Of a stretch of DNA of 22,354 nucleotides, positions 4,003-17,702 are shown one piece after another. The stretch is from Candidatus Thorarchaeota archaeon. GTDB lineage: Archaea > Asgardarchaeota > Thorarchaeia > Thorarchaeales > Thorarchaeaceae. A program made the translations under genes and the position numbers. The notes under the pieces are model-generated. The model did no database searches. It was not told the origin of the DNA and saw only the letters and a list, made by a program, of their open reading frames with translations. The stretch spans positions 1 to 22,354 of the forward strand of contig JBHIAE010000046.1 of the NCBI GenBank assembly GCA_046758445.1. Reading direction: 5' to 3'. Each line of letters starts with the position of its first letter. The stretch's first letter is position 1.

Positions 4003-4015
4003 GAAAACCTTATAG
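4003..4015 (+). promoter_or_regulatory. BRE-TATA promoter for candidate ncRNA-1
   Basis: GAAAACCTTATAG, about 25 nt upstream of the first paired G (4039). Confidence 0.65.
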
Positions 4016-4038
4016 GCCCAATTGGTCCTCCTTGAGTC

Positions 4039-4140
4039 GGAGACGCAAGACCCGCGGATTCACGTTCGTTAACTTGAGTTTCCTGTTGCTTCAGTCTGCG
4101 TCCCTCCCGGCGGAGATCAACAGGTAGCGGGTCTTCTCCA
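4039..4140 (+). ncRNA. Candidate ~102-nt structured ncRNA (three-way junction, possible pseudoknot), family not recognised
   Basis: Helices GGAG/CTCC, AAGACCCGC/GCGGGTCTT, GGATTCA/TGAGTTT and CCTGTTG/CAACAGG; own TATA box and oligo-T tract. Confidence 0.65.
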
Positions 4141-4151
4141 CCTTTTTCTCC
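4141..4151 (+). terminator. Pyrimidine/oligo-T archaeal terminator
   Basis: CCTTTTTCTCC immediately after the closing helix. Confidence 0.5.
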
Positions 4152-14610: not shown

Positions 14611-16254
14611 ATGGAAACTGAGAGAGTCGATCCAGTACCAGAGCAGCCGATTGTTCATGAGGACACTGGAGAGCTGAAGAGATTCCGTGTAGAGAAGTAT
14701 CCAGTTCGCGATCTGCCCTATCAGACTCAATCGATATGCCCTGACTGCCTTCTAGATAACGATGAGGTTCGCGTCATCGATGCCACTGTGTACGAGGAAG
14801 AAGGCAAAGTCATGTACAAGAAGTCCTGTCAAGATCACGGGGAGTTTGTCGACGTATACTGGGGCGACGCTGAGATGTTCAAAGAGGCCCAGAAGTGGTG
14901 GTTCAAATCTGTCGGTCTGGACAATCCGAGGACGCAGACGGTCAAGGGGTGCCCGGAGGACTGTGGTCAATGTCCGGAGCACAAGTCACACACCGCTCTG
15001 GCTCTGCTTGATGTCACGAACCGATGTAACCTACGTTGTCCCATCTGCTTCGCAGTAGCGGCAGAGGGTGGTGATGTGTTCGAGCCTGAGCCAGAGGAAG
15101 TACTGGAGATGATGCGGAATCTGCGTAGAAACATGCCAGTTCCGGCACCTGCAATTCAGTTCGCGGGTGGCGAACCAACAGTGACTAAGCATCTTCCCCA
15201 GTACATCAAGTGGGCGAAGGAACTAGGATTTCGACACGTCCAGATTGCGAGCAACGCAATCAGAGTTGGAAAGAGTAAGGAGTACCTACAAGAGCTACGT
15301 GACGCGGGACTGTCAACTATCTACATGCAGTTCGACGGAGTGACACCTGAGCCATACTTGGAAGCCCGAAACACAAATCTGCTACCAGTGAAGGAACAGG
15401 CAATTCAAAACGCCCGAGAAGTCGGCATGGAGTCATTGGTTCTTGTACCTACTGTAGTGCGCGGAGTGAACGACGACCAGGTAGGTAAGATTGTGGAGTA
15501 CGCTGTGGAGAATAGTGATGTCATTCGATGTGTGAACTTCCAACCCGTAAGCATCACGGGTCGCATTGACTACGAAGCACGAAAGCAGATGCGTATCACG
15601 ATTCCAGATGTGATTCATCTAATCGAGGAACAGACTGGAGGCAAGATCCCATCTCATGTATGGTATCCTGTGCCTGCCATGATGCCCGTGGGTCGTGCAC
15701 TTGGCCTGATGAAGGGCAATCCTCAGCTCGAGCTGAGTACTCACTTCGCATGCGGAATGTCCACGTTCATCTACATCAACGATGAAGGCGACTATGAGCC
15801 AATCACCAATCTGATTGATGTCGATAAGTTTCTTGTCCTGCTAGAAGACATCTCAAACCTCTTTGCTGAGCAGAAGACAGGCGCCAGTGCACGCGCAAAG
15901 GTTAAGCTGGCCGCAGGTCTCAGGCACATAAAGAGGAGAGGAGTCATCAAAGATCTGATTGGTGCTTTTCTGAAGCGCGGCGACTACGAGTCTCTAGCCA
16001 AGTTCATGCGGCGCATCATAATGATTGGGCTCATGCACTTCCAAGACCCATTCAACTTCGACTTGGAACGCATCCAGCATTGCGACGTGAACTATGCCGT
16101 GCCAGATGGCAGAATCATACCGTTCTGTACCATGAACACCATCCACAGGTCCAGGGTTGAAGACAAGTTCAGCAAACCGGTCGATGAATGGCGCGCTCAA
16201 CACAAACCCACCAGGGTCGAGGAAGACAGCATCTCTAAGCCGTTTATGGGCTAA
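14611..16254 (+). CDS. tes: Radical SAM tetraether lipid synthase (Tes / GDGT-MAS, MJ0619 family)
   Basis: N-terminal SICPDC...C..HG, GCPEDCGQCPEH cluster, CNLRCPIC radical SAM motif, GGEPT, C-terminal C...YAVPDGRIIPFC. Confidence 0.88.
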   Translation: METERVDPVPEQPIVHEDTGELKRFRVEKYPVRDLPYQTQSICPDCLLDNDEVRVIDATVYEEEGKVMYKKSCQDHGEFVDVYWGDAEMFKEAQKWWFKSVGLDNPRTQTVKGCPEDCGQCPEHKSHTALALLDVTNRCNLRCPICFAVAAEGGDVFEPEPEEVLEMMRNLRRNMPVPAPAIQFAGGEPTVTKHLPQYIKWAKELGFRHVQIASNAIRVGKSKEYLQELRDAGLSTIYMQFDGVTPEPYLEARNTNLLPVKEQAIQNAREVGMESLVLVPTVVRGVNDDQVGKIVEYAVENSDVIRCVNFQPVSITGRIDYEARKQMRITIPDVIHLIEEQTGGKIPSHVWYPVPAMMPVGRALGLMKGNPQLELSTHFACGMSTFIYINDEGDYEPITNLIDVDKFLVLLEDISNLFAEQKTGASARAKVKLAAGLRHIKRRGVIKDLIGAFLKRGDYESLAKFMRRIIMIGLMHFQDPFNFDLERIQHCDVNYAVPDGRIIPFCTMNTIHRSRVEDKFSKPVDEWRAQHKPTRVEEDSISKPFMG

Positions 16255-16337
16255 AGACACTGACCCCAAGGCATCAAGATCGCTGTTCATTGGGGTCCAG
16301 CTTCCTCATTCTTGGTCTGGGCCAAATATGCCAAAGT

Positions 16338-16350
16338 AAACTTTAATATA
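16338..16350 (+). promoter_or_regulatory. BRE-TATA promoter for candidate ncRNA-2
   Basis: AAACTTTAATATA with no credible ORF downstream; phzF has its own box at ~16740. Confidence 0.55.
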
Positions 16351-16380
16351 GATGGCGACTTTCTAAAGTTGGATAAAGTC

Positions 16381-16504
16381 GGTGGGTGTGCGGGAGCTCG
16401 ATCTCCAGGTGCATACTCAAGGCGAGCATGTGGGCTAGTTTTTCGTTACATGCCCTCAATTACGAAACTCCCCCCTCCTACCACGATTTCCCGCGTGCTC
16501 GCCA
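16381..16504 (+). ncRNA. Candidate ~124-nt structured ncRNA, family not recognised
   Basis: 14-bp helix GGCGAGCATGTGGG/CCCGCGTGCTCGCC, plus GGGTGTGC/GCATACTC, GGAG/CTCC and TTTCGT/ACGAAA; G-U pairs indicate the + strand; pyrimidine-rich tail. Confidence 0.6.
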
Positions 16505-16739
16505 CCTCATTCCTTCTCAAAATCGCAGACGGCGGTTTCTGTATCGGTGTTCTGTTAATCTTTCACATATTATAGAGAGTCCTGTGCATTACTACCTGGT
16601 TTAACAATTCGGACAAGTTCAGCATTCCCTAGTGTTCTGGCGTCTGTCACTTCTTCTTGCCATGCCTGTGTGCTACATCGTATCCTGAATCATTACCGTT
16701 GGTCGAAGTCGGTTCCGCTTGCCAATAAGGCAACCACAT

Positions 16740-16778: not shown

Positions 16779-17702
16779 GTGTCCCGTATGAAGCGACGCC
16801 GGAATCTGCGACTAATACAGGTTGATGCCTTCACAGATACTGCCTATGGCGGCAATCCTGCGGCAGTGATAATCTGTGATAAGGGGCTTGATGATGCAAC
16901 CATGAAGAAGATCGCTCGAGAGATGAATGTTCGTGAAACCGTCTTCGTATCCAATTCTAAGGTGGCAGACTTCCGCTTCCATTTCATGACACCGAAAGGC
17001 GAGCTTGGATTCTCCGGCCATCCAACGATAGCTGCGTTCCATGCTCTGGTAGAGGAAGGTCTAGCTGAAGTGCCTGGTGATGTGACGATGTTCCAGCTCG
17101 AAACGAATGTGGGCGTCCTATCGGTCGAGATCGTGAAGAATGAGTCCACAGGTCATCATGAGGTTCAGATAACACATGAGAAACCGAGCTTTCTGAACAC
17201 GTATGACCCGAAAGAGTATGCCGAGGCACTAGGACTTACGCTGGCAGACATAATGTCCCCAAATCCGGTTCAAACAGTCAGTACTGGGACACCACATCTT
17301 ATGATACCAGTTTCGACCATGCGGGCAATGGAACGTATTGAGCCAGATTGGGCTTGTTTGAAAGAACTCCGCGAAGGTCGTGACTACGTTTCAATACAAG
17401 TCTTCACAAGGGATGCACTAGAGCCCACATCCGATGCTCACGCTCGACATTTCGCACCTGCCCTTGGCGTCTATGAAGATCCTGTAAGCGGTTCCGGAGC
17501 AGGCTGCATGGCTAGCTACATGATAAGATACGGTCTAGTGGAACCAACAATCCCTGTAACTAGCATCGTCATTGAGCAGGGTCACTTTGTTGATCGACCC
17601 GGAAGGGTGTTCGTAGAGGTTCAGGGCAATCAGGAAGACATCCAACAGGTGAAGGTGAGCGGCACAGGCGTAACAGTGCTCGAAGGGACAGTCTTCGTGT
17701 AG
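16779..17702 (+). CDS. PhzF family (DAP-epimerase fold) isomerase
   Basis: QVDAFT...GGNPAAV, ETVF, GHPTIA, VSTG, EDPVSGS, EQG...RPG. Confidence 0.93.
   Translation: MSRMKRRRNLRLIQVDAFTDTAYGGNPAAVIICDKGLDDATMKKIAREMNVRETVFVSNSKVADFRFHFMTPKGELGFSGHPTIAAFHALVEEGLAEVPGDVTMFQLETNVGVLSVEIVKNESTGHHEVQITHEKPSFLNTYDPKEYAEALGLTLADIMSPNPVQTVSTGTPHLMIPVSTMRAMERIEPDWACLKELREGRDYVSIQVFTRDALEPTSDAHARHFAPALGVYEDPVSGSGAGCMASYMIRYGLVEPTIPVTSIVIEQGHFVDRPGRVFVEVQGNQEDIQQVKVSGTGVTVLEGTVFV

Follow-up and report, generated by a model that had tools for sequence, protein, structure and literature searches.

Described small RNAs with comparable features

Among the small RNAs of the Firmicutes, RsaE and RoxS reportedly use C-rich loops for pairing with ribosome-binding regions. 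The RNA family described here resembles them in carrying at least two exposed, strongly conserved C-rich motifs that are able to pair with a G-rich Shine-Dalgarno (SD) sequence, but it belongs to another domain of life, has another architecture, and gives no Rfam match to RsaE. Y RNAs and bacterial Y-like RNAs share with the family a length of about 85-110 nt, a long stem formed by the ends around a pyrimidine-rich loop, and the presence of several paralogs per genome. Unlike the Y RNAs, it occurs in a genome where no TROVE/Ro protein is found, it contains no bulged Ro-binding helix, and it matches no Rfam Y RNA.

In archaea, loops directed against ribosome-binding sites (RBS) are a documented mode of action of sRNAs, as exemplified by sRNA154 and sRNA41 of Methanosarcina mazei (PMC5867862). 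The present RNA is like these two in being intergenic, in having its own promoter and RBS-complementary sequences presented by stem-loops, and in being conserved within a single lineage (PMC5867862). It differs from both in that there is no homology in sequence or structure, in that 1-9 paralogs are found per genome, and in that its single clamp helix encloses an invariant unpaired region of much greater length. Full-text literature searches did not turn up any such sRNA described from Thorarchaeota or other Asgard archaea. It is a new family within an already known class, that of the structured intergenic sRNAs of archaea. Its order-wide presence, its up to nine paralogs and its very long invariant unpaired core are unusual in an sRNA family.

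The sRNA gene between tes and phzF

The window, i.e., the whole stretch of 22,354 nucleotides of Candidatus Thorarchaeota DNA that was analyzed, contains a single match to the models R1 and R2 (16419-16506). It lies between tes, a radical-SAM tetraether synthase gene (14611-16254), and phzF (16779-17702). A sequence-only reading of the window had described a free-standing RNA gene at this place, in a 525-bp gap without any credible coding sequence. Its coordinates, helices and TATA box are all right when read directly from the sequence, and the gap is indeed non-coding; the open reading frames 16312-16575 and 16386-16604 have no Pfam match, and coding is ruled out by the C-run of the element, the length of which varies among copies.

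The TATA box of the sRNA gene, TTTAATATA on the plus strand (16342-16350), is found at the same distance as the corresponding CTTTAATAAG or CTTTAATAGG in orthologs. Archaeal transcription starts around 25 nt from the TATA box, and the start zone would then be the G-rich 5′ end GUCGGUGG (16376-16383, plus strand). The RNA, of about 125-140 nt, is read from the plus strand, and is inferred to start near 16376-81 and to end in the pyrimidine tract after 16506.

The minimum free energy (MFE) structure calculated by ViennaRNA for 16370-16520 on the plus strand has an energy of -48.7 kcal/mol (z = -2.1), while the minus strand is unremarkable (z = -0.4). It begins with a 5′ hairpin, HP1 (GGGUGUGC/GCAUACUC, with an inner GGAG/CUCC; 16384-16418, plus strand), which belongs to the tes-phzF copy only and in which GGGTGTGC (16384-91) pairs with GCATACTC (16411-18) over 8 bp, two of them G-U. 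The closing helix P1 then joins the 5′ arm GGCGAGCATGTGGG (16421-16434) and the 3′ arm CCCGCGTGCTCGCC (16490-16503) by 14 bp on the plus strand, a helix found both in the MFE structure and by covariation. Outside it, GGU at 16381-83 pairs with ACC at 16504-06 in the MFE structure. Inside it, AGUU (16437-16440, plus strand) and GAUU (16485-88) may form a 4-bp extension, P1b, which is predicted in the MFE structure and weakly indicated by comparison. The inner hairpin P2 (16441-16467, plus strand) consists of UUUCGU (16441-46) and ACGAAA (16462-67), and is indicated by both MFE and comparison.

Two C-rich motifs are left single-stranded on the plus strand by this fold. Motif 1, ACAUGCCCUCA (16448-58), lies in the 15-nt loop of P2, and motif 2, CUCCCCCCUCCUACCAC (16468-16484), lies in the 3′ strand of the internal loop; both are predicted to be unpaired, with P(unpaired) = 0.86. 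Motif 2 includes CCUCCU, the anti-SD hexamer. After P1 follows a 3′ tail of ACCU and a pyrimidine tract (ACCUCAUUCCUUCUC; 16504-16518, plus strand) that is likely to be the termination zone. When the full window transcript is folded as an ensemble, both P1 and HP1 form completely, and the two motifs and the tail are 86-88% unpaired. ViennaRNA arrives at precisely the fold A that had been proposed from the sequence, with its unpaired C-rich strand.

Conserved core and covarying helix

Alignment of the copies displays a near-invariant interior, GU.ACAUGCCCUCA ... AACUCCCCCCUCCUACCA, while the inverted repeat that flanks it is wholly different between copies, yet pairs in each of them. Motif 1 is invariant in the alignment A3, motif 2 is invariant within the RNA family, and the U-rich GUUUUUCGU tract is also conserved among copies. 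The length of the C-run ranges from 6 to 9, and short variants read AUG-CCC-UCA-UAA. The conservation of the core is therefore not due to coding.

Covariation was analyzed using 83 distinct sequences aligned to the model; such a fitted alignment favours the structure. Compensatory double changes are found for all 14 pairs of P1, and 96% of the cells are standard pairs; sliding the partner strand by 1-3 columns lowers this to 33-49%. P1 has a covariation score of 0.52 vs. 0.05-0.09 for the slid controls, and none of 500 shuffles reached it. Divergent copies each fold their own closing helix, and these single-sequence folds agree independently with the model alignment. P2 is paired in 87%, with C-G replaced by U-A in 18 sequences, and P1b in 87.5% vs. 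21-59% in slid controls. Since G-U pairs are abundant in the helices, the transcribed strand is the plus strand. Selection at the RNA level on this strand had been suggested earlier from one copy, and the relatives carry compensatory changes in each of the 14 P1 pairs. The recurrence of the element (nine copies in the host genome) and the covariation of its helix (83 sequences) are far beyond chance.

Paralogous copies in the host genome

The host genome is a metagenome-assembled genome (MAG) of 3.25 Mb in 113 contigs that is 92.7% complete. When 16370-16520 was used as the query, nhmmer and the covariance model identified nine copies of the P1 domain (16421-16506), an element of around 85 nt. 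All nine are intergenic and are found in either orientation relative to their neighbours. HP1 is absent from the other eight, and apart from 40 nt common to two copies no homology extends past the ~90-nt element. The free-standing RNA gene of the sequence-only reading stands; that reading had noticed neither that the domain with the 14-bp helix is multi-copy nor that the 5′ hairpin is a locus-specific addition.

The genes next to the host copies are unrelated, and encode among others a HAD hydrolase, a VIT1-like protein, AbiEi, a GAF histidine kinase, OsmC and the NAD synthase NadE. No neighbouring gene was found to be conserved across copies, and no transposase or integrase was seen among the neighbours of the host copies. 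The AbiEi-type antitoxin gene (L006:1-801; G000:C8:64336-65136, minus strand) is situated 0.7 kb from one sRNA copy, and there might be an abortive-infection or toxin-antitoxin module at this place. Outside the host genome, the family member L033 (G023:C1:130628-130746) has apparently been split by an insertion of around 30 nt between the core motifs; its BLAST match comes in two pieces, corresponding to 4-57 and 58-92 of the query.

Synteny, promoters and RNA ends

Dozens of MAGs, belonging to several genera, share the order tes-element-phzF. At this locus the element is 88-100% identical across genera, as compared to 71-78% nucleotide identity for the coding flanks, and the rest of the spacer is unalignable. 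A further copy likewise keeps its place between osmC and nadE in eight other MAGs. This synteny, together with an identity above that of the flanks, implies that these copies are long-established genes that have stayed in position under strong purifying selection, and not recent insertions.

In all of the around 30 tes-phzF orthologs a CTTTAATAAG or CTTTAATAGG box is found 70-80 nt upstream of P1, followed after about 25 nt by a G-rich start, GGUGGG, GGUAGG or GGAGGG, and then by a hairpin. This 5′ hairpin differs in sequence between the orthologs and is part of the MFE structure in all 18 that were folded. Paralogs of the A-type have a TTTATTAGGAAG box at a shorter spacing and a leader of around 25 nt. 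The shorter spacing is also found for class B, where a GCTTAATAGG box is followed by 5′-GUGGUCAG... paired with ...CUGGCCAC-ACCU, and for class C, where a GCTTATTAGGAA box precedes GGUGGACAGG.../...GCCACCAACCU. The starts GUGGUCAG and GGUGGACAGG of these classes pair with ...CCAC at the 3′ end.

A TATA-like hexamer is located upstream of 74 of 90 distinct copies, as compared to 4% of random windows. The terminal helix is followed by CACCU in 60 of 87 distinct copies (2.5% of random windows), and pyrimidines make up 70% of the next positions, +1 to +15, vs. 49% further downstream. Judged from these sequence comparisons, this is very probably a genuine, conserved, independently transcribed and structured RNA family. 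The earlier suggestion of an undescribed sRNA thus agrees well with the lack of Rfam matches, the conserved promoter, the strong covariation, the synteny and the identity above that of neighbour genes, and the homolog search it had proposed as a check uncovered an order-wide, multi-copy family.

Taxonomic range

Model R2 matched all 26 sampled genomes of the same family and the single genome sampled from the sister family, with 1-9 copies per genome, while none of 123 genomes from 25 other Asgard families was matched. BLAST likewise gave matches in 24 of 24 same-family genomes and in the one sister-family genome. The copies of the sister family keep only GCCCUCAA of motif 1, CCCCUCCU(A/G) and the small inner hairpin, and their closing helix is completely different. 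The exact two-motif core pattern has more than 116 matches in a collection of genomes from 185,579 species. Of the core matches listed, around three quarters bear the name Thorarchaeota or Promethearchaeota in their titles (one Hermodarchaeota); the titles of the others listed say no more than "uncultured archaeon" or "archaeon", and a non-Asgard lineage is named in none of those listed. In viral contigs a loose core pattern gave 14 chance matches, none of which was confirmed by the model. There is little doubt that the family, with 1-9 paralogous genes per genome, is confined to the Thorarchaeota order, and that the window contains its founding copy, at a syntenic locus.

The window contains another sRNA (4003-4151) from the same lineage, which like the present one has its own promoter, ACCU after the terminal stem, and a tract of CCCUCC. 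It differs in being single-copy, in folding into a three-way junction, and in being unmatched by models R1 and R2. At 4035-4150, CC-ACCU with a U run is seen after its terminal stem, and the tract it carries reads CCCUCCC. The ACCU end common to these two unrelated sRNAs may be a shared signal for 3′-end formation or binding.

Possible modes of action

Tentatively, we favour a function in trans for the sRNA, with its CCUCCU-containing loops pairing to ribosome-binding sites of the AGGAGG type. P1 would then be a stable 14-bp clamp displaying two invariant C-rich single strands, motif 1, UGCCCUCA, and motif 2, CUCCCCCCUCCUACCAC. Through these exposed motifs the RNA would pair with mRNAs at their purine-rich ribosome-binding regions (…UAGGAGGG…, …UGAGGGC…), and the pairing would mask the SD sequence or alter the stability of the mRNA. 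P1 itself would be a scaffold only, and this would explain why its sequence drifts while the pairing is kept. The conserved TATA box at a fixed distance suggests that the RNA is an intergenic, independent transcription unit, and the CCUCCU of motif 2 is predicted to be accessible to SD sequences (P(unpaired) = 0.86).

The SD sequence of the host genome is AGGAGGTGA at -15 to -9, and start regions are 3-4.4-fold enriched in AGGAG, GGAGG, GAGGT, AGGTG and GGTGA, with the phasing of a AGGAGGUGA SD. It follows from this enrichment that motif 2 and the CACCU(C) tail share words with the 3′ end of 16S rRNA. The anti-SD sequence was derived from the SD enrichment because the 3′ end of 16S rRNA is not assembled in the host MAG, where GGATCACCTCC and conserved 16S words gave only coding-like matches.

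Sites in the host genome that are complementary to the core over 10-11 nt are no commoner than for shuffled cores, and the recurrent core-complementary 11-mers are found in ordinary coding sequence. In a genome-wide duplex scan, start-codon regions paired with motif 2 at -7.9 kcal/mol vs. -7.3 kcal/mol for coding controls, and they did no better with motif 2 than with shuffled C-rich probes. Furthermore, the approximately 25-45 invariant unpaired nucleotides are long for a pairing seed and fit a protein or ribonucleoprotein (RNP) interface at least as well.

Only somewhat less likely is that the RNA is a component or ligand of an RNP, with its invariant C-rich strands and CACCU tail serving not as an antisense seed but as a surface for binding of a protein or the ribosome. 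The partner might be a protein of the KH/PCBP-like or Lsm type, or it might recognise the 3′ end of 16S rRNA, and the RNA would act by sequestration or as a scaffold. Such a role is suggested by the very long invariant single-stranded core within a drifting helix, by the several paralogs per genome with an identical core, as for Y and vault RNAs, by the conserved CACCU tail and U-rich GUUUUUCGU tract, and by the lack of an excess of complementary genomic sites. However, TROVE/Ro (PF05731) was not found in the host genome, and the genes neighbouring the copies are not conserved. Base-pairing sRNAs can also be multi-copy and have long invariant regions, as Qrr1-5 do.

A more specific version, which we regard as a long shot, is that of an abundant Thorarchaeota-specific RNP RNA where the clamp, the CACCU tail and the CCUCCU loop together mimic the 3′ end of 16S rRNA and act on the translation apparatus. 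Such an RNA would either compete globally for SD sequences or titrate a factor by which the anti-SD end of the small subunit is read. If true, it would be a ribosome-directed regulatory RNA in an archaeal lineage close to the eukaryotes, with no described counterpart.

The alternative fold

The sequence-only reading had also proposed a conformational switch between two long helices that exclude each other, in which the 3′ arm 16490-503 alternates between 16421-34 (fold A, containing P1) and 16381-94 (fold B). A wider version of this switch would have a G-rich leader engaged either in HP1 or with the C-rich core, thereby gating access to the motifs. Fold B is indeed present in the window sequence, where 16381-94 and 16490-503 can be paired by hand in 14 of 14 positions, five of them G-U. 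The leaders of class A, in addition, surpass shuffled leaders in their complementarity to the core, with z down to -6.4. For 40% of them z is below -1, as compared to 24% of the trailers, and the mean z for core complementarity is -0.9 for leaders vs. -0.3 for trailers in this class. The window leader pairs with the core at -30.5 kcal/mol (z = -3.1).

The comparative and energetic data nevertheless make the switch quite improbable. Fold B does not covary; in 26 orthologs the 5′ segment pairs on average no better with its own 3′ arm (-13.4 kcal/mol) than with the arms of others (-13.7 kcal/mol). Outside the close relatives of the window copy its pairing is weak, -7 to -15 kcal/mol vs. -22 to -30 kcal/mol for P1, and classes B and C do not have any such 5′ leader segment. 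When P1 was forced open, the cost of freeing its 5′ arm was 13-28 kcal/mol in 17 of 18 orthologs, so that the check on alternative folds went against the switch. In the window copy, structures without P1 are 18 kcal/mol worse, and P1 is fully formed in the ensemble (P(unpaired) = 0.0). The switch is thus unsupported, since fold B does not covary among orthologs and costs around 20 kcal/mol. The 14-bp helix is conserved, while the fold B helix is a lineage-specific chance pairing.

The complementarity between the leaders of class A (16381-16396 in the window; L112/L044) and the invariant core is an observation in its own right. It comprises GGUAGG/CCUACC and UUGAGCGGCAUG/CAUGCCCUCAA, and the leader words GGUAGG, GGAGG and GAGGGCA-like match CCUACC, CCUCC and UGCCCUC, respectively. 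In the preferred fold these words are held inside HP1 and not against the core. The complementarity may reflect a target mimic, a segment chaperoning the folding, or a relic.

Other identities considered

It is very unlikely that the element is a riboswitch-like cis-regulatory leader of phzF. This gene has the same orientation and begins 274 nt downstream of the element, and the combination of a conserved, aptamer-like core and a variable P1 would fit such a leader. However, phzF has its own CTTAATTAG box (16746-54), around 25-35 nt before GTG (16779) or ATG (16788), and the same box is found in orthologs. The window RNA is for this reason not a leader of phzF, whose mRNA is probably leaderless or nearly so. 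Other copies are situated opposite to, or convergent with, unrelated genes, and the core does not contain the internal pairing partners that would be needed to form a pocket.

An equally improbable explanation is that the copies are a MITE or another selfish repeat, multi-copy, intergenic, around 85 nt long and bounded by inverted repeats that only resemble an RNA helix, since here the inverted repeats are variable and the interior invariant, which is the reverse of a MITE, G-U pairs are frequent in the helix, each copy has a promoter, the tes-phzF and osmC-nadE loci retain their synteny between genera, the aligned flanks show no target-site duplication, no transposase is found nearby, and no members are found on viral contigs.

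The window gave no matches to Rfam 15 at the gathering threshold, so the window copy belongs to no described Rfam family, as had been anticipated. At E ≤ 10 there was no match within the element, only two chance matches (E about 3) elsewhere in the gap, and six divergent copies gave no matches at E ≤ 1. ARAGORN found neither tRNA nor tmRNA in the window, and as no cloverleaf was detected a tRNA or tRNA-like identity was rejected. A C/D-box or H/ACA guide RNA was likewise discarded, because the conserved columns of A3 contain no C box (RUGAUGA), D box (CUGA) or H/ACA features, and the 3′ motif is ACC(U) and not ACA. Inspection of the conserved columns by eye gave no convincing match to K-turn, Sm-site or BHB motifs. 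A Y RNA was rejected as well, since PF05731 is absent from the host genome (control genomes were matched as expected) and P1 is a continuous helix without a bulged Ro-binding helix. No reverse transcriptase was found in the host genome either. With both TROVE and reverse transcriptase missing, the ideas of a Y RNA and of a retroelement RNA are left without a partner.

Significance

To our knowledge, the non-coding RNAs of the Asgard archaea are almost uncharted, because most of the lineages, Thorarchaeota included, are known only from metagenomes. The present locus illustrates that pairings seen in a single sequence are only partly meaningful; one long helix was real, while the alternative one was due to chance. 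The analysis yields a covariance model, motifs for mutagenesis and a testable anti-SD hypothesis. The family is present in all sampled genomes of the order, it is conserved above its neighbour genes, its helix covaries, and it has been duplicated to as many as nine copies. Taken together, these sequence comparisons therefore make it likely that this sRNA family has a core cellular role in the Thorarchaeota.
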